A stretch of DNA of 64,000 nt, taken from an uncultured Gemmatimonadales bacterium (lineage in GTDB: Bacteria > Gemmatimonadota > Gemmatimonadetes > Gemmatimonadales > GWC2-71-9). Location: positions 19,240-83,239 of the forward strand of contig CAWJMT010000031.1 of NCBI GenBank assembly GCA_963844035.1, in the 5' to 3' direction. The translations under genes and the position numbers were made by a program. Of the stretch, positions 3,239 to 63,470 are shown one piece after another (positions within the stretch are counted from its first letter, which is position 1; the number at the start of each line of letters is the position of its first letter). The notes beneath the pieces are model-generated. The model was not told the DNA's origin and did not search any database. It saw only the letters and a list, made by a program, of their open reading frames with translations.

Positions 3239-3750
3239 TTCGGGTGGTGGTGGACGACCTCGCGTTCCTCGAGACGGACGCGATCGTTCGTCCCGCCACC
3301 GCCCGCCTCGATCCCACCACCCCAGCGGTTCGCCGCCTCGAGACAATCGGCGGCGCGGAGTTCCTCAACCAGCTGCACCTCCAGAAGGAACTCGCCGTCG
3401 GCGCGGCGGTCGTGACCGCGGGTGGCGGCGGCTTGCCGGCCGAGTTCGTCATCCACGCCGTGATCCAGAGCGACACCGAGCCCGTGACCCGCGAGGCGGT
3501 CGCCCGTGCGTGGCTCTCGGCCCTCGAACGGGCGCGGGAATGGGAGTTCGACCGTCTCACCGTTCCCCCGATCGGGATCGGAGCGGGCAACCTCGCCCTG
3601 GAAGACGCGGCCTCGATCATGGCCGCGGTGCTCAAGGCGCATATCGGAGAGGCGCCCTACCCGTCCGACGTCCGGATCGTGGTCGAGACGCCGGAGGATC
3701 GCGAGGCGTTCGAGGCGGCGCTCCGGATCGCCGGAGCCGCCCAGTCGTGA
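3235..3750 (+). CDS. Macro domain (ADP-ribose binding / O-acetyl-ADP-ribose deacetylase-like) protein
   Basis: MIRVVVDDLAFLETDAIVRPA...VVTAGGGGLPAEFVIHAV...PPIGIGAGNL shows macro-domain motifs. The GTG start overlaps the upstream stop. Confidence 0.7.
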   Translation: MIRVVVDDLAFLETDAIVRPATARLDPTTPAVRRLETIGGAEFLNQLHLQKELAVGAAVVTAGGGGLPAEFVIHAVIQSDTEPVTREAVARAWLSALERAREWEFDRLTVPPIGIGAGNLALEDAASIMAAVLKAHIGEAPYPSDVRIVVETPEDREAFEAALRIAGAAQS

Positions 3751-5283
3751 CCCGCCGGCGTTGGGGGGTGGTGATCCTCACCGCGTGGGCCGTGTCGGTT
3801 GCATGGCTCGTGAAACGCGAGTTCTTCCGGACCACCGGCGAGCGGCTCGCCGAAGCGGCGCTCTCGGTTCCCCCCGGCACCGTGTACTACCGGTTTGATC
3901 AAGCGGGGCAGCAGGTGGGGTTTGCCTCCACCACCATCGATACCGTGGGGACGCTGTTGGACGTGATCGACATACGTCTGCTCGAGTTCCCTGTGCTGGG
4001 CAAGCTGCATCGCACCCGGGTGCGCAGCCGCGCCATCGTGAACCGCGCGTTCCGCCTCCAGACCCTCGACGTCGTCTACGACGCCGACGAAGGCCACCTG
4101 GTGGCGCGTGGGCAAGTCCAGGGCGACTCCGTGCTGCGGATGACGCTCACGTATGCGGGCGACTCCCAGACGACGCGCCTCACGCTGCGCCAGCCGATCG
4201 TGCTGACGACGCTGCTCCCCTTACGCCTCGCGTTCGGCGGCGCCTTCAAGGAAGGGCGGAAAGTCGAGACCAGCGTGTTCGATCCGGTCCGGCTCGCCCT
4301 GCGTGATGTGCGCGTGACCGTGGTGGCCGAGTCGACCCTGATCGTGCCCGACAGCGCGGGCTTCGACTCCACCACCATGGCGTGGGCTCCCGTGCATTAC
4401 GACACCGTGCGGGCGTTCCAAATCGAGGAGCAGTCGGAGGGACTGGCGACGACGACGTGGATCGACGCACAGGGCCACGTGGTACGGGTGGCCGGCCCGG
4501 TCGGCCTCACCATGGAACGCACCGAGTGGGAGATCGCCTACCAGAACTTCCGGCAGGCGCGATGTCACGCGACTGGTGCGCGCCAGCGCCGATCCTGGGC
4601 GTGGTGCCGTGATCCCGACAACCGCGCTCGCGGCCGGCGCGGCGCTCCCCACCCGGGTGCGGGCCGAGTACCGGGCCGTGCTCTCGGGGGCGGACCTCCG
4701 GGGCCTGGTGCTCGCGGGAGGCCGCCAGGAGTTCTCCGGCGACACGCTGATCGTGCGCCGGGAGTCGACGACCGCGCTCGTCGCGGCGTTCCAGCTTCCG
4801 GCCCGCGAGCCGCGGTTCGCGCCATGGCTCGAGCCGGAGCCCCTGATCCAGAGCGGCGACCCCGCCATCCGCACCGCGGCGCACCAGATCCTGGGGGACG
4901 AGACCGATCCCGCGCGCGCGGCCGAACGCCTGACGCATTGGGTGGCGGCGAACGTGCGCAAGGCGGCCGGCGTGGGGATGCCGAACGCGATCCGCGTGCT
5001 GCGGCAGCGCCGCGGCGACTGCAACGAGTTTACCGTCCTGTACGTCGCGCTGGCGCGGGCGGCGGGCCTGCCCGCGCGGTCGGTCGCGGGGCTCTTGGAA
5101 TCGGGCGGGCGCTTCTACTATCACGCGTGGCCCGAAGTGTACCTGGGACGGTGGGTGGCGGTGGATCCGCTGCTCGACCAGTTCCCCGCGGATGCGGCCC
5201 ATCTCCGATTCGCGGTCGGTAGTCTGGCGCGGCACGTCCAGTTGATTCGCTATCTCGGACGCCTGAAGGTCGAGGGGTTATGA
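3747..5283 (+). CDS. Membrane-anchored transglutaminase-like cysteine protease domain protein (apparent +1 frameshift near 4560)
   Basis: GTG 3747 overlaps the macro-domain stop, followed by an N-terminal TM (WGVVILTAWAVSVAWLV). The C-terminal part continues in track ORF 4576..5283 with a Cys-His-Asp core (RRGDCNEFTVLYVALARAAGLPAR...YHAWPEVY...WVAVDP). Confidence 0.75.
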
Positions 5284-6045
5284 TCCGGCTCGAGCAACTC
5301 ACCAAGTTGTACGGCAGCTTCGTGGCGGTCGACGACATCTCCCTCGAGATCCGCAAGGGTGAGCTGTTCGGGCTTGTTGGGACCCAACGGAGCCGGCAAG
5401 ACCACGACCCTGCGGATGATGGCCGGAATCCTGCGGCCGAACGGCGGGCGCGTGTGGATCGGGGAGGACGACGTGCACGCAAACCCGATTGCGGCCAAGC
5501 AACAGCTCGGCTTCATCCCCGATCGGCCGTTCGTATACGACAAGCTGACCGGCGCGGAATTTCTGCGCTTTGTCGCCGGGCTGTACGGACAGGACGGCCC
5601 GGGCGTCGAGCGGCGCATGAACGAGCTGCTCGAGGTGTTCGAGCTGATGAGCTGGAAGGACGAGCTGGTCGAAGCGTACAGCCACGGCATGCGCCAGAAG
5701 CTCATCATCTCGAGCGCCCTGATTCACCGGCCGGCGTGCATCGTGGTGGACGAGCCGATGGTGGGACTCGACCCCAAGGCCGCGCGCCTGCTGAAGGACA
5801 TCTTCCGCCAGTTCGTCGAGAAGGGCGGGACGGTCGTGATGAGCACGCACACCCTCGAGGTGGCCGAGGCGATGTGCGACCGGGTGGCGATCGTCCAGCA
5901 CGGCAAGATCGTGGCGAACGGCACCGTCGCCGAAATCCGCCAGCAGAATCGCGCCGGGGATGCGAGCCTGGAAGACCTGTTCCTGAAACTCACCGGCGGC
6001 GCCCATGTCCGCGATCTGATCGAAGTACTGGGCGGGAATCCATGA
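5280..6045 (+). CDS. ABC transporter ATP-binding protein (apparent 1-nt insertion near 5372)
   Basis: MIRLEQLTKLYGSFVAVDDISLEIRKGELFG in frame 0, then LLGPNGAGKTTTLRMM...SHGMRQKLIISSAL...IVVDEPMVGLD in frame +1. The junction TTCGGGCTTG would read ELFGLLGPNGAGK if one G were removed. Confidence 0.9.
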
Positions 6046-7733
6046 AACAGCCGTCGATCCTGAACGTCCTCCAGCCCAAGTGGCGCACGATCCTGCAACG
6101 CGTGCGCGAGGAGCGGGCCCGCGGCGGCCGCGGCAAGCTCATCATTCTCGTGACGGTGGGCTGCGTCTTCTGGATCGCCGTATTCGGCGTGCTGTACCGC
6201 ATCCTCAAGTATTTCCGCGGCGTCGAGGAGCTGGGCCCGCTGCTCGCCGGCAAGCTGCTCGGCCTGGTGTTCCTCTCGTTCATCTCGATCCTCGTGCTCT
6301 CGAACGTGATCACGGCCCTGTCGAGCTTCTTTCTCGCCAAAGATCTCGACCTGCTCATCTCGGCGCCGGTGGACTGGCTCCGGCTCTATCTCGGGAAGCT
6401 CACCGAGACGCTGGTGCACTCCTCGTGGATGGTGGGGTTGATGGCCGTACCGATCCTCGCGGCGTACGGCGTGATCTATCGCGGCGGCGTGTGGTTCGTG
6501 CCGTTCGCGGTGCTGGCGTTCGTCCCCATGCTGGTGGTGCCCGCGGTGATCGGCTCGGCACTCACGCTCGTGCTCGTGAACCTGTTCCCCGCCCGCCGCA
6601 CCCGCGATCTGCTGTCGCTCGTCGCCATCTTCGCGGCCGGCGGGGTGATCCTGCTGTTCCGGATCATCCGTCCCGAGCGCCTCGCGTCACCGGAAGGGTT
6701 CCGCAACCTGCTGGACTTCATCACGGTGCTGCGCACGCCGACCTCGCCGTTCCTGCCGAGCGAGTGGACCACCAACGCGATCATGAGCTTCCTGTTGGGG
6801 CGTCCCGATCCCCTGCCCCTCGTGCTGCTGTGGACGACGGCGGCGGCGTTCGTGACCCTCGGCGCCTGGCTGCATCGCGAGCTGTTCGCCACCGGATTCA
6901 CCAAGGCACAGGAAGGGGCGGAGCGGTTCGTGCGGGGCGGCATGTGGAGCTGGACCGTCGGAACGCTGCTCAAATCTCTGCCGGTGGCCAAGCGGGAGTT
7001 CGTGCTCAAAGACATCAAGCTGTTCTTCCGCGATGCAAGCCAGTGGAGCCAGTTGATCCTGTTGGCGGTGCTGGTGGTCGTGTACCTCTTCAACATCAAG
7101 GCGCTGCCGCTGCACCGGGGCGAGGAGGTGGGGTTCTTCTACGTGACGCTGGTGTCGTTCTTGAACCTCGGCCTGGCGGGGTTCGTGCTGGCGTCGATCG
7201 CCGCGCGGTTCATTTTCCCGGCCGTGTCACTCGAGGGCCGGCACATGTGGCTGTTGCGCTCGAGCCCGCTCGATCTGCGCGCGCTCTTGTGGTCCAAGTA
7301 CTGGGTCGGCACGCTCCCCCTGCTCGTGCTCGCCCTGCTGCTCACCGGCCTCACCAACGTGCTGCTGCGGGTCGGGCCGTTCATGATGGTCCTGGGGCTG
7401 GTGACGATCTGCGGCCTCACGTTCGCGATCGCGGCGATGGCGCTGGGGTTCGGCGCGCTGTACCCGCAGTTCGAAACGGAGAACGCGGCGCAGATTCCGA
7501 CGTCGTTCGGCGGGCTGGTGTACATGATGGCCACGGTGGCGCTGCTCGGCGCCGTCATCTTCGCGCTGTGGCAGGCCGTGTATGTGTACGTCCGGGCCGT
7601 GTACCAGCGGGTGCCGGTGGGGGTCGACTCCGGAATGATCTTCTGGTTTGCCGTCGCCGCCGGGTTTTGCGCGCTGGCGACGGTGGTCCCGCTCCGCGTG
7701 GGGTTGCGGAAGATGGAAACGTTCGAGTTCTAG
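6042..7733 (+). CDS. Polytopic membrane protein, putative ABC exporter permease partner
   Basis: ATG 6042 overlaps the ATPase stop (ATGA). The 563-aa product has many hydrophobic helices (MKQPSILNVLQPKWRTILQRV...). The track shows it fused out of frame in the 5280..7733 ORF. Confidence 0.7.
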   Translation: MKQPSILNVLQPKWRTILQRVREERARGGRGKLIILVTVGCVFWIAVFGVLYRILKYFRGVEELGPLLAGKLLGLVFLSFISILVLSNVITALSSFFLAKDLDLLISAPVDWLRLYLGKLTETLVHSSWMVGLMAVPILAAYGVIYRGGVWFVPFAVLAFVPMLVVPAVIGSALTLVLVNLFPARRTRDLLSLVAIFAAGGVILLFRIIRPERLASPEGFRNLLDFITVLRTPTSPFLPSEWTTNAIMSFLLGRPDPLPLVLLWTTAAAFVTLGAWLHRELFATGFTKAQEGAERFVRGGMWSWTVGTLLKSLPVAKREFVLKDIKLFFRDASQWSQLILLAVLVVVYLFNIKALPLHRGEEVGFFYVTLVSFLNLGLAGFVLASIAARFIFPAVSLEGRHMWLLRSSPLDLRALLWSKYWVGTLPLLVLALLLTGLTNVLLRVGPFMMVLGLVTICGLTFAIAAMALGFGALYPQFETENAAQIPTSFGGLVYMMATVALLGAVIFALWQAVYVYVRAVYQRVPVGVDSGMIFWFAVAAGFCALATVVPLRVGLRKMETFEF

Positions 7734-8212
7734 AGCGGGACGCTCAGTCCGCCCTGGATCTGGAACGTCGTGCCGTTGCCGAAGATCAGCCGCGCTTCCG
7801 CGTAGGGCCGCAGGTTCCCGCGCCGTCCCTCGACGCCCGCGAACAGGTTCACATTCGTGTCCGTCTCGGTCTGGTGCGTGAGGTTGATGCCGCCCCCGAT
7901 GTAGCCGTTGCGATTCGCCACTTGCGGCCGCAGGCGCGCATCGAAGTTCAGCATCCAGAGCGTCTGGTCGGTGAAGTACCAGTCGAAGGAAGGATAGAAG
8001 TCGACCTTCTTGGCGACGGGAATCGCCAGCTGCGCGCCGGCGAAGGCGACCTCCGCATCGAAGTTGTAGCCCGCGTGCCCGCCGATCTCAGGGCGCGCGG
8101 CCGCCCCACCCCCTCGACCCCTGCGCCCGCCGCGCCGCTGTGCATCCGCCGCCGTGGTGACGACGGCGAGGGCCAGGAACGCAACCAGGATCTTCAGGGC
8201 AAGCGATTTCAC
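7730..8212 (-). CDS. Small outer-membrane beta-barrel protein with signal peptide
   Basis: GTG 8212 is preceded by GAGGAG. It has a signal peptide (VKSLALKILVAFLALAVVTTAADAQ), alternating beta-strand pattern, and aromatic-rich C-terminal strands. Confidence 0.65.
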   Translation of the reverse strand: MKSLALKILVAFLALAVVTTAADAQRRGGRRGRGGGAAARPEIGGHAGYNFDAEVAFAGAQLAIPVAKKVDFYPSFDWYFTDQTLWMLNFDARLRPQVANRNGYIGGGINLTHQTETDTNVNLFAGVEGRRGNLRPYAEARLIFGNGTTFQIQGGLSVPL

Positions 8213-8828: not shown

Positions 8829-9401
8829 TCAGTCCGGGTACTGGCGGAGCTCGCGGTTCAGCCGCTCGAGCTCTTCGGGAGAGGCGACGACCGGGGGGGC
8901 GCTGATCCCAACGGGCGCCGGCGTGGCGCTGCGCGTCCAGCGCCGCAACACCATGAAGAGCAGCGCCGCCGCCACGAGGATCAGCACCCCGGGCGTGAAA
9001 TAGCCCGCGAGATTGAACCCTTTCTTCGGGGGCGCCATGAGAATGGAAAGCCCGTTTTCACTCACGAACGCGTCGAGGATCTCCTGCGCGCTCTTGCCTT
9101 GATCCTCGAGCGCGAGCACCCGCTGGTGCATCTCGGGGCTGGTCGTGCACGTGAAGTCGGTGGTGCGGCAGGTATACACGTCGAGACTGCACCCGCAGGT
9201 GCAGCGCAGCTTCTTCTCGATCGCCTGCGTCGCCTCGGCGTTGTCCCGCGCGGTGACAGGCGGGAGCGGCCGGCCGGCGCGAGCCGGATCCCAGAGCTTG
9301 CCGGAGTTGTGGAGGGAATCGGGAGTCTGGGCGGGAAGGCGGGAAGCCGGGAGGGCGGGAAGCAAAAGCAGTCCCGCGGCAAGGGTAATGCACCCGCGCA
9401 T
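8829..9401 (-). CDS. ccmH: Cytochrome c-type biogenesis protein CcmH
   Basis: MRGCITLAAGLLLLPALPA signal peptide, LRCTCGCSLDVYTC (LRCxxC thiol motif) and a C-terminal TM. The track ORF 8829..9854 is over-extended into ccmF. Confidence 0.85.
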   Translation of the reverse strand: MRGCITLAAGLLLLPALPASRLPAQTPDSLHNSGKLWDPARAGRPLPPVTARDNAEATQAIEKKLRCTCGCSLDVYTCRTTDFTCTTSPEMHQRVLALEDQGKSAQEILDAFVSENGLSILMAPPKKGFNLAGYFTPGVLILVAAALLFMVLRRWTRSATPAPVGISAPPVVASPEELERLNRELRQYPD

Positions 9402-9445
9402 CAACCTTACCGCCTTCCCGCCCTCCCGCCTTCCCGCTCCCGCCT

Positions 9446-11934: not shown

Positions 11935-13431
11935 TTAGCGTCGTTTTCGCGCTCCCAACGTTGCCCAGTGCAACGCCGTGTCCACCGCGCGCCGCCATTC
12001 CGCCTCGCGCGCCCGCACGGACGCCTTGGCCTTCCCGGGCTTGAAGTGCGTGAAGGTGCGACCCTGCAGGAACTCCTCCGTCCCCTTCCACACCCCCACA
12101 CCCAATCCTGCCAGCGCCGCGGCTCCCAGGACCGTGACCTCCAGCACGTCGGGGCGGGCCACCGGTACGCCGAGCAGGTCGGCCTGGAATTGCATGAGCA
12201 GGTCGTTGGCGGACACACCACCGTCCACCTGCAGGGCACGCAGCCGCAGCTTCGAGTCGGCGATCATCGCGTCGAGCAATTCCTTGGTGCTGAACGCCAT
12301 CGCCTCGAGCGCCGCGCGGGCGATGTGCGCGCGCGTCGTGCCGCGCGTGAGTCCGACGATGGTGCCGCGCGCATTGGGCGACCAGTGCGGCGCCCCGAGC
12401 CCCACGAAGGCGGGCACGAAGTACACGCCGCCCGTGTCCGGGACCTCGCCGCCAGTGCTTCGGTCTCGGCGGCGCGGGCGATCATCTTCAAGCCATCCCG
12501 CAGCCATTGGATGGCGGCGCCGGCGATGAACACGCTGCCTTCGAGCGCGTACACCGGCTCGCCCTTGGGGCCGCACCCGATGGTGGTGAGCAGACCATGG
12601 GTCGAGGTGGGTCGCCGCTTGCCGGTATTGAGGAGCAGAAATGCGCCGGTCCCGTACGTGTTCTTCGCCTGCCCCGGCTTCACGCAGCCCTGCCCGAACA
12701 ACGCCGCCTGCTGGTCCCCCGCGATGCCGGTCACGGGGATCTCCACCCCCAGGTGCTCGGCCGCGCAGACGCCGAACATCCCGCTCGAGTTGCGGATCTC
12801 CGGCAAGGATTCGCGGCGCACGCCGAACAGCTTGAGCAGCTCGTCGTCCCAGGCGCGCTTGCCGATGTCGTACAGCATCGTGCGCGACGCGTTGGTGTGA
12901 TCGGTCGCGAAGCTCGCCCCGTTGGTGAGGCGGAACAGCAGCCAGCGTGTCGATCGTGCCGAACACCGCCTCGCCCGCCGCGACGCGCCGCTTCAAGCCC
13001 GGCACGTTCTTCAGCAGCCACTCGATCTTCGTCGCGGAGAAGTAGGGGTCGAGGACCAGCCCGGTGCGCTTGCGGACCATCGCCGCCTTGCCCTGGCGGG
13101 TGAGCTGGCGGGTGCGCGGCTCGGTGCGCCGGTCCTGCCACACGATCGCCCGGTGCAGCGGCCGGCCGGTCTTCCGCTCCCAGACGCACACCGTTTCGCG
13201 CTGGTTGGTGATCCCGAGCGCCACGGGCGTCACCTTCGCCTGCGCCATCGCTTCACGCGCGGCCTCGAGCACCACGCGGAACGTTTCCTCGGGATCGTGC
13301 TCCACCTCCCCGGGCTTCGGGAAGTACTGCGTGATCTCGCGGTAGCCGCGCCCGAGTACGCGACCGTCGGCGGCGAAGACCAGCGCCCGCGCGCCGGTCG
13401 TGCCGGAATCGATGGCCAGGACGGCGCTCAT
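11935..13431 (-). CDS. glpK: Glycerol kinase (two compensating frameshifts near 12944 and 12450)
   Basis: MSAVLAIDSGTTGARALVF...ITNQRETVCVWE...FGTIDT, then the conserved middle (MLYDIGKRAWDDELL...AGDQQAALFGQGC...NTYGTGAFLLLNTG) lies in ORF 12264..12878. It returns to the first frame at GGVYFVPAFVGLGAPHW. Confidence 0.9.
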   Translation of the reverse strand: MSAVLAIDSGTTGARALVFAADGRVLGRGYREITQYFPKPGEVEHDPEETFRVVLEAAREAMAQAKVTPVALGITNQRETVCVWERKTGRPLHRAIVWQDRRTEPRTRQLTRQGKAAMVRKRTGLVLDPYFSATKIEWLLKNVPGLKRRVAAGEAVFGTIDTLAAVPPHQRGELRDRSHQRVAHDAVRHRQARLGRRAAQAVRRAPRILAGDPQLERDVRRLRGRAPGGGDPRDRHRGGPAGGVVRAGLREAGAGEEHVRDRRISAPQYRQAATHLDPWSAHHHRVRPQGRAGVRARRQRVHRRRRHPMAAGWLEDDRPRRRDRSTGGEVPDTGGVYFVPAFVGLGAPHWSPNARGTIVGLTRGTTRAHIARAALEAMAFSTKELLDAMIADSKLRLRALQVDGGVSANDLLMQFQADLLGVPVARPDVLEVTVLGAAALAGLGVGVWKGTEEFLQGRTFTHFKPGKAKASVRAREAEWRRAVDTALHWATLGARKRR

Positions 13432-14452
13432 GAGTTCGCTCCGAAGGGCGGCTGGACCACACCGCGGTCGGTAATGAAGGCGCGCACGTAGCGCGCCGGC
13501 GTGACGTCGAACGCCGGATTCAGCACCCCGGCTGCGGGGGGAGCGATGCGACGGCCGGCGAACGCGGTCACTTCTTCCGGGGCACGTTGCTCGATCGGGA
13601 TACCCTCACCGGTGGCAACAGCGGGATCGATCGTGGATGAAGGCGCGGCACAATAGAACGGCACCTCATGATGAAGGGCGAGGACGGCGAGCGCGTACGT
13701 GCCGATCTTGTTGGCGAAATCGCCGTTGGCGGCGATCCGGTCGGCGCCCACAAGGATGACGTCCACTTCCTTTGCCCGCAACAGCGCGCCGGCCGCTGCG
13801 TCGGCGAGCACGGTACAGGGCACCCCGGCCTCCGTCAGCTCCCACGCGGTGAGGCGCGCCCCCTGAAGCAGCGGCCGGGTCTCGTCGACGTACACGTGCA
13901 CTCGGCGGCCGGCTTCGTGCGCGAGGTAGACGGGCGCGAGCGCCGTGCCGATCCCCCCGGTGGCCAGCGCCCCCGCATTGCAGTGCGTCAGCACGCTGGT
14001 GTTATCGGGAATGAATGGCAGGCCCGCTTCGCCGATCCGCCGGCACATGGCGCGGTCTTCGTCCAGTATCGCCGCCGCCTCCGAGGCGAGGCGGTCCCAG
14101 ATGGCGCCGCCGTCACCGGGAGCCTCACGGGCCGCCCGGCTCATGCGCTCGAGCGCCCAGCCGAGGTTCACCGCCGTGGGTCGAGTCGCCCCGAGCAGGC
14201 CGGCCACCTCAGCCAGCCGCGCCAGGAAGACCTCGCGGCGCTCCTGCCGGTGCGGACGCAGCGCGGCCACGAGCCCCATCGCCGCCGCGATCCCGATGAG
14301 CGGTGCCCCACGCACCTGCAGCGTCCGGATGGCCATCGGCCACGTCGTCCACGGTCTCCAAGTCTCGCTCGACGCGGGCTTCGGGGAGGGCACGCTGGTC
14401 GAGGATGCGGACGGCGCCGGAGGGGCGTCCAGGAGATCGCTTGGACGGGCAT
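13428..14452 (-). CDS. mtnA: S-methyl-5-thioribose-1-phosphate isomerase (eIF-2B family) (two N-terminal frameshifts near 14420 and 14335)
   Basis: AIRTLQVRGAPLIGIAAAMG...THCNAGALATGGIGTALAP...VDETRPLLQGARLTAWEL...GADRIAANGDFANKIGTY. The N-terminus MPVQAISWTP / GAVRILDQRALPEARVE is spread over two other frames. Confidence 0.85.
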
Positions 14453-14469
14453 GGGCGAAAAACTAATGC

Positions 14470-14563
14470 GGTGTCAGGTGTCAGGTGTCAGGTGTCAGAG
14501 GCACGATGTCAGGTGTCACCTGACACTCGCACCTCTGACACCCGACACCTGACACCTGACACC
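14470..14563. repeat. About 94-nt imperfect palindrome made of (GGTGTCA)n / (TGACACC)n heptamer arrays
   Basis: ggtgtcaggtgtcaggtgtcaggtgtcagaggcacgatgtcaggtg-t-cacctgacactcgcacctctgacacccgacacctgacacctgacacc, centre at 14516. It lies between divergent mtnA and the enoyl-CoA hydratase gene. Confidence 0.9.
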
Positions 14564-14584
14564 CCGTCGGTTACCATTCTGTAG

Positions 14585-31139: not shown

Positions 31140-31495
31140 GCCGCTGGCGCCGGGCCGGCACCGGCCTGCTCATCTTATCGGCCGTGGGGGTATGGATGGG
31201 AGCATGCAGGATCAATCCCGATCTCGATGCGGTCATCCAGATCACCGTCGCCGTCGCCGATTCGGTCGAAATGACCGATACTCTGCGCGCCCACGCCAGC
31301 GCGGGCACGGCGCGAGGCGACACTGTGCCAATGACGTTCACCTGGACGAGCTTTGACACGTTGGTCCTCGCGGTGGCCGATAGCGTGGCGGGCGTGTTCG
31401 TCGGCCGGCAGGTCGGCGCGACCCGTATCCAGGTCCACTCAGACAACCTGTACAGCAACCCGATCACGATTACCGTGACGCCAGCGACACCGTGA
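31136..31495 (+). CDS. Small lipoprotein with Ig-like (Big_2-like) domain; start codon uncertain
   Basis: RWRRAGTGLLILSAVGVWMGAC is lipoprotein-signal-like, followed by a beta-rich domain (ATRIQVHSDNLYSNPITITVTP). No ATG/GTG is in frame; only CTG 31136 overlaps the upstream stop. Confidence 0.4.
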   Translation: MSRWRRAGTGLLILSAVGVWMGACRINPDLDAVIQITVAVADSVEMTDTLRAHASAGTARGDTVPMTFTWTSFDTLVLAVADSVAGVFVGRQVGATRIQVHSDNLYSNPITITVTPATP

Positions 31496-33316
31496 GCCCC
31501 GCGACCAAGGGCACCCTCACCCGCCTGTTCTTCGACGCGCTCGAGCGGCATCGGGGGCTGCCCGCTGCGCTCCGGCACAAGGTCGGCGACCGCTGGGTCG
31601 CCCTGACGCACAGCGAGGTGGAAGAGAGGGTCCGCGCCGTGTCGCTCGGCCTGCGCGAGCTCGGCGTGAGCCCAGGGGACCGGGTGTCGATCCTGTCGGA
31701 GAACCGCCCCGAGTGGGCGATCGCCGACTACGCCTGCCTGTGCGCGCGGGCAGCGGATGTACCGATCTACCCGACCCTGCCGGCGAAGCAGGCGGAGTAC
31801 ATCCTGCGCGACGCGGGCGCGGTGGCCGTGTTCTGCTCGACCGCCGCGCAGCTCGCGAAGGTGCTCGAGGTGCGGGCCAACCTGCCGGCGCTGCGGCACA
31901 TCATCGCGTTCGATCCCGCCACCCAGGACGGGGTGATGAGCTTCGCCGACCTCGAGGCGCGCGGCCGCGCCGCGGTCGGGAAGTATCCGCAGTACCGCGC
32001 TGAGGCGCTCGCGGTCGAGCCCGACCAGCTGGCGACGTTGATCTATACGTCGGGCACCACCGGCGACCCGAAGGGCGTGATGCTGTCGCACAACAATCTC
32101 TGGTCGAACGTGCTGTGACTCGCTCCAGACCATGACGGTCGTCCCGGGAGACGAGTGCCTCTCCATGCTGCCGCTGTCGCACGTGTTCGAGCGGATGGTG
32201 GGGTATACGATGTTCCACGGCGGCGTGATCATCAACTATGCCGAGTCGTTCGACAAGGTCGCCGACAACATGCGGGAGGTGCGCCCCACCGTCGTGCTGT
32301 CGGTGCCCCGCTTCTACGAGAAAGTGTACGCGCGGGTGCTCGAGAACGCGCTCGCGGGGAGTGCGGTGAAGCGCAACATCTTTTTCTGGGGCAAACGCAC
32401 CGGCGACGCATGGGCCACCTATCGCCTCGCCGGGCTGGCCGTCCCGGCGGGGCTCAAGTTCAAGCACGCGATCGCCGACCGGCTGGTGTTTTCCAAGCTG
32501 CGCGCCCGCACCGGCGGCCGCGTCAAGTTCTTCGTGTCCGGGGGCGCGCCCTTGTCGGCGGAGATCGCGAAGTTCCTGTTCAGTGCGGGTCTTCCCGTGT
32601 GCGAAGGGTACGGCCTGACCGAGACGTCCCCCGTGCTGACGATCAACCCGGTCGAGCGCATCAAGGTCGGCACGGTGGGCGCGGCGATTCCGGGCGTGCA
32701 GCTCCGCATCGCGCCGGACGGTGAGATCCTCGCCAAGGGACCGGGGATCATGCAGGGCTACTACAACAAGCCCGAGGCCACGCGCGAGGCGATCGATGCC
32801 GAGGGGTGGTTTCACACCGGCGACATCGGCGAGCTCGACGCCGACGGCTATCTGAAAATCACCGACCGCAAGAAGGATCTGATCGTCACCGCCGGGGGCA
32901 AGAACATCGCGCCGCAGCCGATCGAGAACCTCGTCAAGCACAACAAGTTCGTCGCCAACGCGGTGATGCTGGGCGACAGGCGCAAGTTCACGATCATGCT
33001 GGTGGTGCCGAATTTCGACAACCTGGAGCGGTGGACGGCGGAGCGGCGGTTGTCCGCGAGCACGCGCGCGGCGCTGATCGCGCTGCCCGACGTGCAGGCC
33101 AAGGTGGAGCGCGAGGTGATGGGCGAGCTGCGCGAGCTGGCCAAGTACGAGATGCCGAAGCGGGTGCTGCTGCTCGAGCACGACTTCACGATCGACTCGG
33201 GCGAGCTGACGCCGACGCTCAAGGTCAAGCGGCGCGTGGTGGAGAAGCGCTACAAGGAGCTGGTGGATCGCGCGTACGCCGAGGGGGATCCGCTCACGGC
33301 GTCGTTGGAGGGTTAG
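31492..33316 (+). CDS. Long-chain acyl-CoA ligase (AMP-forming) (apparent frameshift near 32115)
   Basis: LIYTSGTTGDPKGVMLSHNNLWSNV (ORF 31492..32118), then DSLQTMTVVPGDECLSMLPLSHVFER...GYGLTETSP...GWFHTGDIGELDADGYLKITDRKKD...GKNIAP (ORF 32132..33316). Confidence 0.9.
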
Positions 33317-34263: not shown

Positions 34264-35361
34264 TTAGCAGTCCTCAGGCACCCACACGTTCTCATAATAT
34301 CCGGTTTCTTGCCAGTCGCCATCATAGATGGGCACAACCTCCCAATGTCCGCACTCAGGAGGAGGAGGAGGAGGAGAAGGAGGTACGAAACCAAAGTCGT
34401 TCAGCCTCCAGCTTTGCGGGGATGAAGTTCCCTCACCAAACGATGAATCGTACCAGCCCCGGAATCCCAGATCGGTCCAGAAGCATTCAAATCGTCCACC
34501 GGCGACGCCCGGCCACCACACCCCGGCCGCGTCCAGGAACTGTTTCTGCACGCAGTCGGCGTAGCGCACGGCGTAGCTGCCGATGTTCCCCGATGCTCCA
34601 TTGGGCAGGTACGTTTGTACCCGCAAGGACTGGTCCGCACCCTCGCACGTGTCAAATCCCAACGTGCCGCCCTCATTGCATAAAGCTTGGCTTGAGTAGT
34701 TCGCATGTTTGCTCGTTGCGACCCAGGCTCGGGGATAGGTGCCTGGATGCCCGGGATAAGTAAGGTTCTCTGGGTATTGCGGGGAGCCGGGGCCCGTCCA
34801 GAATTCCTTGGAGAAGAAGCCGTAGTCGTAGTGTGCAGAGTAGTGGGCTTCATCCAGGACCCAATGCTCGGTATTGCTCTTGTAGTAGACCACTAGGGCG
34901 ATCACTTCAGAGTCGCCGTAGTGGGGCTCGATGTGATAGGTGACGTCGCCGTTGTCTATGCGGTACGACAACAGGTACAAGATGATGACCTTGCCGGGAC
35001 CGTATGCTTGAAGCCCCGCCGGCCGAATCGGCTTCTGGTCGCTGGCGGCAGTCGGCCTCGCTGCCCAGCGTGGCTCACGTTCCATGTAGAAACTGGATTT
35101 GTACCGCAGCTCCGGCGCAAATGCGTCGGCGAGTGTTTGTTCGCAGAGGTCCGTCAGGCCGTCCTGGTCCGTGTCCGGCCCGGTGGCGCCCATTGAAGCG
35201 AGGCACGAGTTCACACTGAACCCGAGGTACACACCGTACGCCCCCGGATACGGGTCCACGGCTTGTGGTCGGTCTATCCGGGCAAGCGGGCCGGTGGATT
35301 CCTGGGTGCAGCTCGCGAAGAGGAAGAGGACCGCGGCGGGGAACATCAACAATCGCTTCAT
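34264..35361 (-). CDS. Cys-rich secreted lipoprotein with TSP3-like Ca-binding motif and poly-Pro tract; possible Vps62/DUF946-like core
   Basis: MKRLLMFPAAVLFLFASC lipobox, DTDQDGLTD, HYGDSEVIALVVYY...AHYSAHYD, PPSPPPPPPE encoded by a (GGA)n run at 34358-34383, and 10+ Cys. Lower GC than the flanks. Confidence 0.6.
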   Translation of the reverse strand: MKRLLMFPAAVLFLFASCTQESTGPLARIDRPQAVDPYPGAYGVYLGFSVNSCLASMGATGPDTDQDGLTDLCEQTLADAFAPELRYKSSFYMEREPRWAARPTAASDQKPIRPAGLQAYGPGKVIILYLLSYRIDNGDVTYHIEPHYGDSEVIALVVYYKSNTEHWVLDEAHYSAHYDYGFFSKEFWTGPGSPQYPENLTYPGHPGTYPRAWVATSKHANYSSQALCNEGGTLGFDTCEGADQSLRVQTYLPNGASGNIGSYAVRYADCVQKQFLDAAGVWWPGVAGGRFECFWTDLGFRGWYDSSFGEGTSSPQSWRLNDFGFVPPSPPPPPPECGHWEVVPIYDGDWQETGYYENVWVPEDC

Positions 35362-35380
35362 GGGGCACGTCCGTTAGGAA

Positions 35381-35434
35381 GTGAGAGGTGAGATGTGAGA
35401 GGAGGGGGGTGAGAGGAGGGGGGTGAGAGGAGAG
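35381..35434. repeat. Heptamer-phased array GTGAGAG/GAGGGGG upstream of the lipoprotein gene
   Basis: gtgagag gtgagat gtgagag gaggggg gtgagag gaggggg gtgagag gagag, in strict 7-nt phase. Confidence 0.85.
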
Positions 35435-35489
35435 CGGTCTACCATTTCACAGTACGGCGTGGCACCTGTTGGCGCCATCAGGTGCACCC

Positions 35490-44141: not shown

Positions 44142-44234
44142 CTATGGTGAGGATCGTGACGGGCACTCCGATAACGGCAGCCGCTGGACGGCGATGAGCA
44201 GGTAGGTGACGGCGAAGATGAGGAGGCCGAGCAT
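44142..44234 (-). pseudogene. 30-codon remnant resembling the N-terminus of an ArsB/NhaD-type (SLC13-like) permease
   Basis: MLGLLIFAVTYLLIAVQRLP... then immediate degeneration and a stop; abuts the heptamer palindrome. Confidence 0.3.
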
Positions 44235-44246
44235 GAAGACGAAGGC

Positions 44247-44320
44247 GGTGTCGGGTGTCAGGTGTCAGGTGTCAGGGATTCGCCGCAGTGCCTGACACCT
44301 GGCACCTGACACCTGACACC
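44247..44320. repeat. (GGTGTCA)n palindrome, second copy
   Basis: ggtgtcgggtgtcaggtgtcaggtgtcagg-gattcgccgcagtg-cctgacacctggcacctgacacctgacacc; starts 5 nt beyond the GNAT stop. Confidence 0.9.
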
Positions 44321-54615: not shown

Positions 54616-55851
54616 ATGCAACGGCGGGAGTTTGTGACGGCGGCAGGAGCGGCGCTGGTGTCTGGGCGGGAAGGCGGGAAGGCGGGAAGGCGGGTGAATG
54701 ATCCCGGCCTCCCGCCTTCCCGCCTTCCCGCCGTTCTTCCTCAAGAGCCCACGCTCGGCCCGGCGATATTCGCTCAACGCATCGCGCGCGCGCAGGCCGA
54801 GCTCACGACGCGCAAGTGGGACATGCTCATCGTCGTGCCCAGTGCCAACTATCGCTACTTCACCGGTGACCACCCGGGTACGAGCGAGCGCCTGATCGCG
54901 CTGATCGTGCCGGCGGCGGGCGATCCCGCCATCGTGTGCCCGGCATTCGAAGTGGACCGCATCAAGGCGCATGCGGGCATTCGCGACATCCGCGGCTGGG
55001 AGGAGCACGACAACCCGTACGACCTGGTGAAAAAAGTCCTCCGGGCCCGGAAGCCGCGCGGCACCGGGACGATCGCCCTCGAGGCATCCACCGCGTTCAG
55101 CACATTCGTCGGATTGAAGGATGCGCTCGACGGCTGGAAGTTCGAGGACGCGACGGGCGTGACGACGCGGCTGCGGCTGATCAAGACTCCGGAGGAAATC
55201 GCCTTGATCCGGCGCGCCATCGCCATCACCGAAGAGGCGCTGGCGGCCACGTTCGCACAGCTCGCGGTCGGGATGAGCGAGCAAGACACGGCGCGGTTGC
55301 TTGCGAATGAGATGGAAAAGCGCGGCGCCGAGGGCGACGGCCTGGTGCAGTTCGGCGCGTCGAGCGCCTTGCCCCATGGCGGACCGGCCGGCGCCACCCT
55401 CGAGCGGGAGTCGCCCGTCCTCATCGACTGCGGCTGCCGGGTGGCGGGCTACACCTCCGACATCACCCGCACGATCTGGTTCGGGGAGCACCCCACCCTC
55501 GAGTTCACGAAGGTCTACAACCTGGTCCACGACGCCCAGACCGCCGCGATCCAGCTTGGGAAGCCGCTGTTTACACCCTGCCAGGAGATGGACCGGGCCG
55601 CACGCCGGGTGATCACGGAAGGCGGGTTCGGGCCCCAGTTCACCCACCGTCTGGGCCACGGCATCGGCCTCGACATCCACGAGCCGCCGTATCTGGTCGA
55701 AGGAAACGAAACCCGCCTCGAGCCCGGGATGGTGTTCACCGTGGAACCCGGGATCTATCAGGCGGGGAAGTTCGGTGTGAGGATCGAGGACGACTGCGTG
55801 ATGACCGAGAGCGGCGTGGTGGTGCTCAGTCAGCGACCGGCGAAGCTCTAA
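54616..55851 (+). CDS. M24-family Xaa-Pro dipeptidase with Tat-like signal
   Basis: MQRREFVTAAGAAL, then a creatinase-like N-domain, then LIDCGCRVAGYTSDITRT...HRLGHGIGLDIHE...FTVEPGIY...VRIEDD. Confidence 0.85.
   Translation: MQRREFVTAAGAALVSGREGGKAGRRVNDPGLPPSRLPAVLPQEPTLGPAIFAQRIARAQAELTTRKWDMLIVVPSANYRYFTGDHPGTSERLIALIVPAAGDPAIVCPAFEVDRIKAHAGIRDIRGWEEHDNPYDLVKKVLRARKPRGTGTIALEASTAFSTFVGLKDALDGWKFEDATGVTTRLRLIKTPEEIALIRRAIAITEEALAATFAQLAVGMSEQDTARLLANEMEKRGAEGDGLVQFGASSALPHGGPAGATLERESPVLIDCGCRVAGYTSDITRTIWFGEHPTLEFTKVYNLVHDAQTAAIQLGKPLFTPCQEMDRAARRVITEGGFGPQFTHRLGHGIGLDIHEPPYLVEGNETRLEPGMVFTVEPGIYQAGKFGVRIEDDCVMTESGVVVLSQRPAKL
54664..54732. repeat. (GGCGGGAA)n palindrome, 69 nt, lying in frame inside the M24 gene just after its signal peptide
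   Basis: gggcgggaaggcgggaaggcgggaaggcggg-tgaatgatcccgg-cctcccgccttcccgccttcccgcc; encodes GREGGKAGRRVNDPGLPPSRLPA. Confidence 0.9.
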
Positions 55852-57048: not shown

Positions 57049-57077
57049 GCGTCAATATCCCCACGCGCAATGTGTGC

Positions 57078-57097
57078 GGGCAAGGCATGCCTTGCCC
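57078..57097. promoter_or_regulatory. Perfect 20-nt palindrome in a divergent intergenic region (candidate operator)
   Basis: gggcaaggca|tgccttgccc, 30 nt upstream of the aminotransferase start. Confidence 0.35.
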
Positions 57098-57161
57098 CTA
57101 CCCCGCCCGGACGCTAGCATCCCGCCAGCACAAGAACCGCCCTTTGACAATCGAGGATCGT

Positions 57162-58510: not shown

Positions 58511-58531
58511 GACGTCTGATGTCTGACGTCT
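58511..58531. repeat. (GACGTCT)3 heptamer array directly after the HU gene stop
   Basis: gacgtct gatgtct gacgtct. Confidence 0.75.
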
Positions 58532-58822
58532 CTACTTCTTGTTGTTCACCGCCATCTTGAGCTGCTTGCCCGCACGAAATGCCGGAGCGATGGACGCCTT
58601 GATCTGAATCGCGCCACCGGTCTTGGGATTCCGTCCCATGCGAGCGGCGCGCTTGCGGGCCTCAAAGTTTCCGAATCCGGTGATCTGCACCTTCGCACCC
58701 TTCTTCAACTCGACAGCAATGATGCCCTTGTCATCGAATAGGGCTTCGATTGTCCGACTCGCGTCGGCCTTGGACATCTTGGTCCGCATCGCCAGCGCCG
58801 AGGTCAGCTCAGCTTTGTTCAC
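58532..58822 (-). CDS. hup: HU-family DNA-binding protein
   Basis: MNKAELTSALA...ITGFGNFEARKRAARMGRNPKTG..IQIKAS..PAFRAGK. Confidence 0.95.
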   Translation of the reverse strand: MNKAELTSALAMRTKMSKADASRTIEALFDDKGIIAVELKKGAKVQITGFGNFEARKRAARMGRNPKTGGAIQIKASIAPAFRAGKQLKMAVNNKK

Positions 58823-58963: not shown

Positions 58964-59037
58964 GGTCAGGTGTCGGGTGTCAGGTGTCAGGTGTCAGGAA
59001 GGCAACCCTAGCACCTGACACCTGACACCTGAGCACC
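58964..59037. repeat. (GGTGTCA)n palindrome, third copy
   Basis: ggtcaggtgtcgggtgtcaggtgtcaggtgtcagg-aaggcaaccctagca-cctgacacctgacacctgagcacc; ends 10 nt before the coaE ATG. Confidence 0.9.
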
Positions 59038-60536: not shown

Positions 60537-63437
60537 ATGCCCACAGCACACGCATCCCTGCTGGCTGCTGATTCGTTCGAGCTCCGTCACCTAGGGCCCC
60601 GTCCCAGCGACGTGGACGAGATGGTCCGCACGCTCGGCCATAACACGCTCGACGAGTTCATCGCGGCGGTGGTGCCGGAGGACATCCGGCTGAAGCAGCC
60701 GCTTGCCCTGCCCCCGGGCCGGGGTGAGGGCGAGGTGCTCCAGGCGCTGCGCGGGATGGCGTCGCAGAACAAGGTGTTCCGGTCGTTCATCGGGATGGGC
60801 TATTACCCCTGCTTCACGCCGCAGGTGATCCAGCGCAACGTGATGGAAAACGCCGGCTGGTACACGGCCTATACGCCGTACCAGGCAGAGATCGCGCAGG
60901 GGCGGCTCGAGGCGTTGCTCAACTACCAGACGATGGTGTCCGACCTGACGGGCCTGGAAATCGCCAACGCCTCGCTGCTCGATGAGTCCACGGCGGCTGC
61001 CGAGGCGATGCATCTCACCGAAGCGGCGACCAAGCACGACGGGGATCTTGTGTACCTCGTGTCCGCAGGATGCCACCCCCAGACGATCGCTGTGGTGCGC
61101 ACCCGCGCCGAGGTGCGCGGGATCAAGGTGGTGGTCGCCGACCCGGCGACGTTCACGTTCGGTCCCGGTGTGATGGGCGCGCTGTTGCAGTATCCCGCGA
61201 CCGACGGCAAGGTCTCGGACTACCGCAAGTTGTGCGAGGCGGCGCACGCGGCAGGCGCGCTCGTGGCAGTCGCCACCGACCTGCTGGCGCTCACGCTGCT
61301 CATGCCTCCCGGAGAATGGGGAGCCGACATCGCGGTGGGGTCGAGCCAGCGGTTCGGCGTACAGATGGAATACGGCGGCCCGCACGCGGCGTTCTTCGCC
61401 ACGCGGGACGCGTACAAGCGCCACCTCCCCGGCCGCATCATCGGCGTGTCGAAAGATCCGGAAGGGCGGCCGGCGCTCCGCATGGCGCTGCAGACGCGGG
61501 AGCAGCACATCCGCCGCGAGAAGGCGACGAGCAATGTCTGCACGGCGCAGGTGCTGCTGGCGGTGATGGCGAGCATGTACGCGGTGTACCACGGCCCGGA
61601 GGGGTTGCTGCGCATCGCGCAGCGCGTTCACACGCTGACGGTCCTGCTCGCCACGGCGCTGAAGCGCCTGGGCTACCGGATCGTGCACACGGCGTACTTC
61701 GATACGCTGTGCGTTGAAGTCGAGCGGTGGGCCTTGCCCCGGTTGCTCGACGCGGCGCGCGCGCGCGGCATCAACCTGCGTACCATCGACGCCACGCACC
61801 TCGGCATCGCCCTGGACGAGCCCACCACCCTGGGCGATCTGGCGGACCTCGTCACCGTGTTCTCGCTGAACGAGGTGCTGCCGTTCATGGTGGAGGACCT
61901 GGGCGCCAAGGCGAGCACGGCGATCCCCGAGGTGTTGCGGCGGACGTCGCCCTACCTGACGCATCCGGTGTTCCACAAGCACCGCTCGGAAACGCAGATG
62001 CTGCGCTACATCGAGCAGCTGGAAGCCCGGGACCTCTCGCTCACGGTCGCGATGATCCCGCTCGGCTCCTGCACCATGAAGCTCAACGCCACGTTCGAGA
62101 TGGCGCCGGTCTCGTGGCGCGAGTGGAACCAGCTGCATCCGTTCGCGCCCCGCGAGCAGGCGCAGGGCTACCAGATGCTGTTCCACCAGCTCGAGGACCA
62201 GCTCTCCGAGATCACCGGGTTCCCCAAGGTGTCGCTGCAGCCCAACTCGGGCGCCCAGGGAGAGTTCGCCGGGCTGCTGGTGCTGCGCGCCTACCACGCG
62301 TCGCGCGGCGAGGCGCATCGCAACACCTGCCTGATCCCCGTGTCGGCCCACGGCACCAACCCCGCGAGCGCCGTGATGGCGGGGCTCAAGGTGGTGCCGG
62401 TGCAATCGGACGAGCACGGCAACATCGACGTCGCCGATTTGCGCGCCAAGGCCGCGAAGCACCGCGACACGCTGGCGGCGCTGATGGTGACCTATCCGTC
62501 CACCCACGGGGTGTTCGAGTCCACGATCCGGGACATTTGCGCCATCGTGCATTCACACGGCGGCCAGGTGTACATGGACGGCGCCAACATGAATGCGCAG
62601 GTGGGACTGTGCCGCCCCGCTGACTTCGGCGCCGACGTCTGCCATCTGAACCTGCACAAGACGTTCTGTATCCCGCACGGCGGCGGGGGCCCGGGGATGG
62701 GGCCGATCTGCGTGGCCGAGCATCTCGGGCCGTTCCTGCCCGACCACCCGGTCGTGCCGCTGGGGCATGCGCAGTCGTGCGGCACGGTGTCCGCCGCCCC
62801 GTGGGGCAGCGCCGCGATCCTGCCGATCTCCTGGGCCTACATCGCCGCGATGGGACGCGGCGGGCTGGCGCAGGCGACCAAGGTCGCGATTCTCAACGCC
62901 AACTACATCGCGCGCCGGCTCGCCGGTCATTACAACCTGCTCTACTCCGGCCAGCACGGGTTCGTGGCGCACGAGTGCATCATCGACACGCGTCCGTTCA
63001 AGCAATCGGCCGGCGTGGAGGTAGAGGACATCGCGAAACGCATCATCGACTACGGCTTCCACCCGCCGACCGTGTCGTTCCCGGAGGCCGGAACCCTGAT
63101 GATCGAGCCGACCGAGAGCGAGTCGCGGGAAGAGCTCGACCGGTTCTGCGACGCCATGATCGCGATCCGCGAGGAGATCCGCGAAATCGAAGAAGGACGG
63201 ATGCCGCGCGGCAACAACGTCCTCACTCACGCGCCGCACACCCTCGAAGACCTGGTCAGGGACCAGTGGGACCGGCCCTACTCGCGGGAGCGAGCCGGCT
63301 TCCCGGCACCTCACAATCGCCGCCACAAGGTGTGGCCGGCGGTCGGCCGCGTGGACGCCGCGTCGGGCGACCGGAATCTCGTGTGTGTGTGTCCGCCGAT
63401 GGAGACGTATACGGAAGAAGCGGCGGTAGGAGACTAG
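60537..63437 (+). CDS. gcvP: Glycine dehydrogenase (decarboxylating), single-chain P protein
   Basis: 966 aa: [46 protein letters not shown]...[20 protein letters not shown]. Confidence 0.97.
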
Positions 63438-63470
63438 GCGGGCAGGCGGGCGGGCGGGAAGGCGGGAAGC
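63437..63470. repeat. GGCGGGN-type G-rich array filling the gcvP / lipoate-ligase gap
   Basis: ggcgggcaggcgggcgggcgggaaggcgggaagc. A complementary C-rich array (cccgccctcccgcctacccgccctcccgcctgc) lies at 63882-63914 inside the next gene. Confidence 0.75.

Follow-up and report, generated by a model that had tools for sequence, protein, structure and literature searches.

The DNA analysed here is a 64,000-nt window of contig CAWJMT010000031.1 from an uncultured Gemmatimonadales bacterium, with a G+C content of 67.8%. It carries a divergent gene pair: an IF-2B/MtnA-family gene (mtnA) on the minus strand and, to its right on the plus strand, an enoyl-CoA hydratase gene (ECH), whose homologues at 80-88% identity are named Gemmatimonadales or Gemmatimonadetes metagenome-assembled genome (MAG) proteins. 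Between them lies a palindrome of tandem GGTGTCA heptamers (copy 1), which reads (GGTGTCA)4 GAGGCACGATGTCAGGTGTCA|CCTGACACTCGCACCTC TGACACC CGACACC (TGACACC)2. A sequence-only reading of the window had described this 94-nt palindrome in a 132-nt gap and had placed two further copies elsewhere in the window. All three were found where it had put them (Table 1), and the gap length holds provided that mtnA begins at the CAT at 14450-14452, as it does in homologues. Copy 2 is bounded on one side by the end of a GNAT gene (stop codon 44325, minus) and on the other by a 30-codon open reading frame (ORF) remnant (start 44234, minus). The neighbours of copy 3 are an HU-like gene (58532-58822, minus) and coaE (plus, ATG 59048), and its final unit merges into CACCTT, 8 nt 5' of the coaE ATG.

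The 14-mer GGTGTCAGGTGTCA, allowing at most one mismatch, occurred 17 times in the window compared with 0.01 expected from dinucleotide-preserving shuffles, and the arrays were also recovered by Tandem Repeats Finder. An inverted-repeat search returned arms of 46, 36 and 31 nt for copies 1, 2 and 3, respectively, with a complementarity of 84-89%. Because the arms are an array and a reverse-complement array around a unique spacer, either DNA strand, or an RNA copy, can form a long hairpin. Folding of the single-stranded DNA gave -48.2/-54.3 kcal/mol (plus/minus strand) for copy 1, -36.2/-31.5 kcal/mol for copy 2 and -29.8/-27.6 kcal/mol for copy 3, with z-scores from -6 to -13 and none of 200 shuffles equally stable. 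The loops of the three copies are mutually unrelated. Copies 1-3 are real, hairpin-forming, multi-copy elements at promoter-proximal spacers. Rfam and tRNA scans of the window gave no match. An intrinsic terminator was considered for copy 1 and rejected, since the element has no U-tract, the terminator scan found 0 terminator-like sites there and it sits between two gene starts; the sequence-only reading had likewise held that it was not a simple terminator.

We compared 86 orthologous mtnA|ECH loci, 79 of which have unique upstream regions; no contig encoding a protein identical to the window's ECH was retrieved. In 79/79 unique regions the ECH ATG is preceded, at a distance of 5-9 nt, by a TAnnnT hexamer, whose frequency at control positions is 1.8%; the palindrome thus sits between two back-to-back, probably leaderless, promoters, which upholds the divergent promoter region claimed earlier, with mtnA on the minus strand, ECH on the plus strand and a -10-like box on either side. 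A hexamer equivalent to the mtnA box was read by eye in 6 orthologous spacers. At the ECH promoter-like site, CTGACA is the last-but-one repeat unit of copy 1 and TACCAT ends 7 nt before the ATG (14585). The same CTGACA at a spacing of 17-18 nt was seen in copy 1 and in the related loci L228 and L236 (L numbers designate retrieved loci). In some alleles, such as that of L270 (AACCTAATGCGG...CCGCATTAGAAT), the palindrome has the -10 boxes at its outer ends. No Shine-Dalgarno sequence is evident at mtnA or ECH, and judging from these sequence features both mRNAs are probably leaderless.

Table 1 Repeat elements and promoter-like sites in the window (positions are those of the window).
Feature	Position	Strand	Composition and context
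Copy 1, whole	14470-14563		Centre ~14516.5; between mtnA and ECH
Copy 1, left, G-rich arm	14470..14497		4 perfect GGTGTCA units
Copy 1, inner quasi-palindromic spacer	14498..14535		Degenerate units (GATGTCA GGTGTCA / CCTGACAC); hairpin tip ~14516-14520
Copy 1, right, C-rich arm	14536..14563		TGACACC CGACACC TGACACC TGACACC
Copy 2	44247..44320		GGTGTCG (GGTGTCA)3, 14-nt loop, TGACACC TGGCACC TGACACC TGACACC
Copy 3	58964..59037		~5 GGTGTCA units, loop, ~3 TGACACC units
-10-like TAGTTT (top strand AAACTA)	14460..14465	minus	7 nt upstream of mtnA start codon (CAT 14450-14452)
ECH promoter-like site	14549..14577	plus	CTGACA, 17 nt, TACCAT; promoter scan
GGCGGGAA/TTCCCGCC palindrome	9330..9437	minus	One arm between ccmF stop (9446) and ccmH
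GGCGGGAA/TTCCCGCC palindrome	54665..54732	plus	GGCGGGAA x4, 8-nt loop, TTCCCGCC x3; 5' end of M24 peptidase ORF
GGCGGGA-type array	63436..63468	plus	Directly 5' of lplA-like ATG (63472)

The synteny around copy 1 (ccmF-ccmE-FGGY-mtnA | ECH-x-dciA-gyrB) is conserved, and the orthologous spacer was found in three states. It is either about 27 nt long, without a palindrome and with two overlapping outward-facing -10-like boxes; or it holds heptamer mirror arrays of a lineage-dependent unit; or it carries a unique inverted repeat (GGACATGCAAAGACTAG...CTAGCTTTTGCATGTCC) around a loop of 2-130 nt. Among the mirror arrays GCGGAAT is the commonest unit, accompanied by GCGGATT, GCGGAAC, GGTGTCA (the window, L228, L236), AGGTGYT (L233), GTGGGGA, GGGGAAG and GCAGAAT, so that at least six unit types occupy this one orthologous site. 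Under a strict criterion of two arms with at least three units each, mirror arrays were present in 20/79 unique regions, the arms always being reverse complements and the G-rich arm always coming first. The single-step unit variants AATGCGG, ATTGCGG and AGTGCGG were each seen in both arms, a sign that the arms change in concert. The comparison revealed filled, empty and replaced-unit states at orthologous spacers. It shows that the design (two complementary arms, a 7-nt period and the G-rich arm 5' on both strands) is conserved at the mtnA|ECH spacer across Gemmatimonadales. Unit sequence, copy number and loop are not conserved and differ even between near-identical strains. This goes beyond the earlier view of the element: the unit at a given site is replaceable, and what is conserved is the design, not the sequence.

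How fast the cassette changes is apparent from two metagenome contigs, L230 and L232 (cassette at ~3890-4000), which encode an identical hydratase. Over ~4 kb their DNA is 100% identical in ECH, 99.6% in mtnA, 100% in FGGY and 99.8% downstream, whereas the cassettes are only 57% identical, with GCGGAAC versus GCGGATT units and different loops. The L232 allele is apparently a mosaic whose left part matches L304 and whose right arm matches L272/L285, although the ECH DNA of these loci is only ~80% identical to that of L232; alleles thus seem to be shuffled by recombination. Similar turnover was observed at the HU|coaE site of copy 3. The closest relative found there, L323, has coaE DNA 95.4% identical to that of the window and the same GGTGTCA unit, in 3+5 units against 5+3 in the window and around an unrelated loop. 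GGTGTCA was also found in L313 and L314 with other counts and loops, and L316 has the AGGTGYT unit. In L315 the site is empty and holds a compact promoter (TTGACC-17 nt-TACCCT-7 nt-ATG). In more distant relatives such as L321, the conserved TTGACC-17-TACCCT promoter is followed, within the TK leader, by a GGTGTCA-type palindrome, and the TK|coaE spacer is filled by a second mirror array (GCNNTCA/TGANNGC). The copy number of heptamer arrays is therefore polymorphic between related strains. Together, the two sites show that unit, copy number and loop turn over fast, partly through recombination, while the design persists; the arms evolve in concert and the hairpin tip is a hot spot of turnover.

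Confinement of the unit to the three window loci, which the sequence-only reading had named as a result that would count against it, was not what we found: GGTGTCA recurs in relatives, both at these sites and elsewhere, and in many phyla. An exact (GGTGTCA)3 scan of one genome per species matched at least 119 genome stretches, and those among the matches listed include Acidobacteriota, Gemmatimonadales, Planctomycetota, Desulfobacterales, Chloroflexota, Cyanobacteria, Bacteroidota, Verrucomicrobia, actinomycetes and others. In many of the listed loci the arms are mirrored in this way too, and their units are degenerate ones such as GGTTTCA and GGTATCA. Exact arrays of three or more units in the 887 kb of DNA fetched numbered 193 for a period of 7, compared with 5, 3, 5, 0 and 0 for periods 5, 6, 8, 9 and 10, an excess that agrees with the over-representation of heptamer repeats cited in PMC4679880 and PMC4692102. 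In viral contigs, (GGTGTCA)3 was found in 39 stretches, (GGTGTAC)3 in 3 and (GTGGTCA)3 in 66. The (GTGGTCA)3 loci (L159-L223) contain mirror arrays of the same polarity as GGTGTCA, often several per contig; this is another real, widespread repeat family and hence not a neutral control. Our literature search returned no paper describing GGTGTCA or GGTTTCA arrays: GGTGTCA as a repeat or palindrome matched only primer and guide sequences, and GGTTTCAGGTTTCA appeared in no paper.

The order of the arms is strikingly regular. Across 103 distinct mirror pairs in 34 unit families, the first arm has more G than C in 28 families (90 pairs) and equal G and C in 6 families (13 pairs), with no family having less G than C. 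A degenerate GCCGTCA pair in L321 (G minus C = -1), found by eye, is a mild exception. A direct test in viral contigs gave the G-first pattern in 3 stretches and the C-first pattern in 0, small numbers that are consistent with the rule. Stop-codon content, purine excess and keto excess were tried as alternative polarity rules and each fits worse than G minus C. Self-folding of the arms, considered as a cause, gave a mixed picture, the first arm folding better in 17 families, worse in 6 and equally in 11; for GGTGTCA, the main unit, either arm alone gives 0.0 kcal/mol. An ORF-based classification of gene context around 82 pairs was discarded, because the TGA/TCA in the unit ends any ORF at the array and biases 'gene end' calls.

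One locus is unusually rich in these arrays. In Ca. Chloroploca sp. Khr17 (L084, positions 3570-7960), a gene for an Eco57I/MmeI-like N6-adenine methyltransferase contains at least 11 GGTGTCA-type arrays, among them whole hairpins repeated in tandem. Long ORFs continue through the arrays partly in frame (QVSG...LTPDTWNLTP), with TGG replacing the in-frame TGA. An autonomous element between widely spaced arms was looked for and, at the one locus followed up (L084), rejected, L084 being an array-riddled methyltransferase gene and not a transposase.

The mirror design is not restricted to heptamers. An octamer, GGCGGGAA/TTCCCGCC, forms two compact palindromes in the window (Table 1) and one pair of widely split arms, in which the CCCGCC-type partner of the array 5' of lplA lies 415 nt downstream (63882-63911) within the lplA coding region. 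The GGCGGGAA family contains GGG. In the ccmF|ccmH copy the ccmH start codon (9396-9398) is inside the loop and the other arm encodes the signal-peptide residues LPALPASRLPA; at this site relatives keep the 8-nt period and differ in their units. With an octamer family of the same design in the window, the GGTGTCA elements appear as one expression of a genome-wide habit. Other repeats were observed as well. A 14-nt tandem array (GTGAGAGGAGAGGG x ~4, 35378-35438) lies directly upstream of the start codon of a minus-strand gene (34264-35361, no Pfam match) and is C/T-rich in the sense direction of that gene. The convergent dbpA/HU spacer contains a 3-unit heptamer array (window 58511-58531, L314 4377-4397, L315 9507-9527) whose heptamer differs among relatives (GACGTCT, CACCTGA, GTCAGAC). 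Directly downstream of copy 2, the 30-codon ORF remnant (44142-44234, MLGLLIFAVTYLLIAVQRLP...) resembles a membrane-transporter N-terminus and may be a truncated gene. An sbcC-sbcD operon, for a nuclease cleaving DNA hairpins, lies one gene from copy 2 (45366-48874); palindromes of ~70-110 nt are tolerated in this genome although SbcCD is encoded.

Split or frameshifted genes occur at several places in the window. The main mtnA ORF (13428-14393) and the mtnA start are in different frames, probably through an indel error in the assembly. Besides mtnA (14168-14452), dbpA is in two frames (57000-58452), lplA (63438-63560) switches frame ~60-90 nt after its ATG and an AMP-binding enzyme (31492-33316) is in two ORFs, which suggests an indel-prone (long-read) assembly rather than pseudogenes. 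In relatives, where the L315 lplA encodes 290 aa, the called lplA of L313 (14383-15077, 159 aa) and of L316 (14400-14828, 142 aa) is cut short at, or close to, a short tandem array, suggesting array-length changes or assembly errors at coding-region repeats. Exact unit counts could therefore be slightly off. That the palindromes themselves stem from assembly or sequencing error, as these frameshifted genes might lead one to suspect, is extremely improbable, given that many independent assemblies, produced in different projects and with different assemblers, show this design at the same sites and that isolate genomes have it too.

Tentatively, and with some doubt, we interpret the element as a hypervariable palindrome of simple sequence whose form results from slippage, template switching between the arms, breakage of the loop and recombination, and which may also tune promoters. 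A short inverted repeat, at copy 1 the two outward-facing -10 boxes, would seed a hairpin, and 7-nt replication slippage would then lengthen and shorten the arms. Template switching across the hairpin (quasi-palindrome correction) could transfer changes from arm to arm and so preserve complementarity, breakage and repair at the hairpin tip could swap the loop, and short-patch recombination could exchange alleles between strains. At the mtnA|ECH spacer the cassette may keep two otherwise overlapping divergent promoters apart and substitute their -35/upstream DNA; in copy 1, a repeat unit would provide the CTGACA 17 nt upstream of TACCAT. If the cassette does replace this DNA, changes in it would modulate both genes in the fashion of a contingency locus. 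Being upstream of both -10 boxes of apparently leaderless genes, copy 1 should not be part of the mtnA or ECH mRNA.

Several observations weigh against this interpretation. The strict G-first polarity has no demonstrated cause, self-folding of the arms not readily accounting for it. Slippage in place does not explain why GGTGTCA recurs at three separate places within 64 kb, in relatives at the ECH site as well as at the coaE site, and in many phyla. GCGGAAT and GGTGTCA share at most 3/7 positions in any register, so the unit switch at the ECH site looks like replacement and not drift. Some copies are part of a transcript or of a coding region (copy 2, those at ccmH and at the M24 peptidase gene, L321 and L084), and a DNA-only role cannot therefore be general. 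Finally, the C-rich arm fails as a general -35 box, both for copy 3 (spacers of 13 or 6 nt) and L323 (12/19 nt) and for units such as ATTCCGC, and this idea is kept only as a local effect.

A serious rival explanation is that the palindromes are non-autonomous hairpin elements, resembling miniature inverted-repeat transposable elements (MITEs) or inverted doublets of REP (repetitive extragenic palindromic) sequences (REPINs). An enzyme encoded elsewhere would bind or cleave at their arms; copies would insert into short spacers and sometimes genes, and unit families would compete for preferred targets. GGTGTCA at three window sites and at the ECH and coaE sites of relatives, filled and empty states of orthologous spacers, an unrelated unit replacing the resident one at the same site, overlap of window arrays with coding regions and the same unit and design in many phyla all point this way. 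So do the clustered, nested elements in the Ca. Chloroploca methyltransferase gene, which recall clusters of bacterial interspersed mosaic elements (BIMEs) and Rickettsia palindromic elements, and the fact that several MAGs supply multiple contigs, with arrays often at contig ends. We nevertheless consider mobility of this kind rather doubtful. Loops are unrelated among copies of one genome and between close strains, no target-site duplication was seen, no tag is consistent across copies and the arms are not palindromic alone. No REP-associated tyrosine transposase (RAYT) or other transposase was found among the ~45 window ORFs scanned (64 kb of the genome). The period is site-specific (7 nt at mtnA|ECH, 8 nt at ccmF|ccmH) and the unit variants that differ by a single step within one site speak for descent in place. 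A MITE or other transposon of fixed sequence was rejected, as no flanking direct repeat was seen and the internal spacers are unrelated. A further, more novel alternative keeps mobility as one of two options: the mirror arrays may arise from a dedicated polarity-imposing process common to phyla, or from a hitherto unrecognised mobile element of hairpin simple sequence served by an unknown enzyme. Such a process might consist in the addition of repeats, or in fold-back synthesis, at the 3' ends to either side of a DNA break or hairpin tip, which would yield a G-strand-then-C-strand geometry, as in head-to-head telomere fusion. This is improbable; if true, either option would explain the 90:0 G-first rule, hypervariable loops, replacement of whole cassettes and units shared at dispersed sites and across phyla.

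Transcribed either way, the element would present a 5' G-arm, a loop and a 3' C-arm, and a cis-acting RNA hairpin could shield mRNA 3' ends, stop read-through, mask C-rich RNA from Rho or gate translation where the loop holds a start codon. Such a role is plausible for copies inside transcripts: the hairpins have high stability, copy 2 is flanked by two same-strand genes, the 9330-9437 GGCGGGAA copy encloses the ccmH start codon with Shine-Dalgarno-like GGGAGG/GGAAGG in its 5' arm, and the L321 palindrome lies in the TK leader downstream of its promoter, with another filling the TK|coaE spacer. The polarity is identical for any read-through transcript, and TAACTGA repeats of Beggiatoaceae provide a precedent just upstream of start codons (PMC4679880). 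As an explanation of the elements, an RNA function is unlikely, since copy 1 is upstream of both -10 boxes, lacks a U-tract, terminator-like site or Rfam match, and the unit sequence is so freely replaceable that only pairing could matter. In copy 2, G-T wobbles of the plus strand become C-A mismatches on the transcribed minus strand, where the hairpin is weaker (-31.5 versus -36.2 kcal/mol). Replaceability bears equally on the idea that the arms are head-to-head sites for a sequence-specific DNA-binding regulator or a nucleoid protein. Short inverted motifs directly upstream of two promoters, repeated at three loci, would suit such a protein; near-identical strains with different units at the same site, at least six unit types at one orthologous site and a 7-bp period, which by established DNA geometry places successive sites on different helix faces, make it very unlikely.

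Whichever mechanism applies, the mtnA|ECH spacer offers a tractable natural series, from empty through a plain inverted repeat to mirror arrays of at least six units, and including two alleles in otherwise identical strains. The G-arm-first rule, holding for every G/C-imbalanced pair in 34 families from many phyla, is a simple regularity for which every mechanism has to account. Should the cassette tune the two overlapping leaderless promoters, uncultured soil bacteria would have a contingency device of a new kind; should it be no more than a by-product of mutation, it would still be useful for tracing slippage and the processing of palindromes in SbcCD-encoding genomes. To our knowledge, heptamer repeats have been noted as over-represented since 2007 and no mechanism or function has been established for them; the orthologous series and the polarity rule make this old question directly testable.

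Among known systems, REP sequences are 20-40-bp palindromes tagged with GTAG or CGTC; in a REPIN two of them form an inverted doublet, which RAYTs mobilise (PMC3116915, PMC3733652). The elements described here share with the REP/BIME/REPIN group two inverted arms around a variable spacer that form a hairpin, and an extragenic, multi-copy, clustered distribution with occasional copies inside genes (PMC3116915, PMC3733652). Unlike a REP, which is itself palindromic and has a family-specific sequence, their arms are plain heptamer arrays, non-palindromic alone, and the unit at a site can be replaced. A CGTC occurs only after copy 1 and not at its other end, and is absent from the flanks of copies 2 and 3 and of L228. 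The likeness to REP/BIME drawn by the sequence-only reading did not hold up, and membership was rejected on the grounds of the non-palindromic arms, the lack of a consistent GTAG/CGTC tag and the unrelated loops, with no RAYT among the ORFs scanned.

The TAACTGA repeats of Beggiatoaceae, Cyanobacteria and Bacteroidetes, which lie just upstream of start codons, are common to distant phyla with no known transfer mechanism (MacGregor 2015, PMC4679880). Like them, the present arrays are unit-specific heptamer arrays a few nt upstream of start codons, and the CTGA core of TAACTGA faces the downstream gene, as it does in the TGACACC arm (PMC4679880). Unlike the mirror arrays, TAACTGA sets are nearly all direct (169 direct, 1 inverted), and a role in translation, in 5' leaders, was proposed for them (PMC4679880), whereas copy 1 is upstream of the probable transcription starts. 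In the ctxAB promoter, heptamer TTTTGAT repeats form a promoter-located simple-sequence contingency locus. The GGTGTCA palindrome resembles such loci in having short repeats of variable copy number directly upstream of a core promoter, and one unit of copy 1 is at -35 distance, with copy 3 and other units not fitting. It differs from them in its mirror-image second arm, and neither a repeat-binding regulator nor on/off switching is evidenced for it.

The short tandemly repeated repetitive (STRR) sequences of heterocystous cyanobacteria have the units CCCCAGT, TTGGTCA and CAACAGT, and TTGGTCA was reportedly described as an STRR unit by Mazel and colleagues in 1990. Both they and the window arrays are tandem heptanucleotides dispersed in intergenic DNA, and TTGGTCA shares a GTCA/TCA core with GGTGTCA; GTGGTCA, related to the STRR unit, forms mirror arrays of the same polarity in the fetched contigs. 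In the strict sense of three specific cyanobacterial units, the Gemmatimonadales unit is not an STRR, and palindromic pairing of STRR sequences is undocumented in the portions of the literature covered.

The closest known relatives are the heptameric long simple-sequence repeats (LSSRs) and STRR sequences, together with the convergent GGGAATC pairs of Xanthomonas. In the majority of bacterial genomes, heptamers are reported to be the most abundant LSSRs (Mrazek 2007, as cited in PMC4679880 and PMC4692102). According to Rehm et al. 2015 (PMC4692102), a Xanthomonas genome has ~185 GGGAATC arrays and 70-75 cases in which two close arrays lie on opposite strands in convergent orientation. The same paper describes LSSRs as 7-nt tandem units, usually in ~4 copies, mostly intergenic and dispersed, which vary in length among relatives, the length beside the same genes not being kept in related species. 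All of this applies equally to GGTGTCA, with at least three head-to-tail 7-nt units and the same unit at three dispersed loci in 64 kb, and its arms are likewise two close, convergent arrays on opposite strands in the same G-arm-first mirror layout (PMC4692102). The differences lie in the unit and the phylum, Gemmatimonadota. With only GG, GGTGTCA lacks the G3 tracts of the Xanthomonas type and forms no G-quadruplex. Copy 1 is between divergent leaderless-type promoters, whereas Xanthomonas arrays are mostly just downstream of ORFs (PMC4692102). Replacement of the unit at an orthologous site and a polarity rule across many units are not among the features described for Xanthomonas in the available text of PMC4692102. 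The likeness to STRR-type heptamers noted in the sequence-only reading thus stands at the level of the class, heptameric simple-sequence repeats, in which convergent pairs are known from Xanthomonas (PMC4692102). The GGTGTCA palindrome is a new unit, in a new phylum, of this known class of heptamer simple-sequence repeats with convergent inverted pairs.

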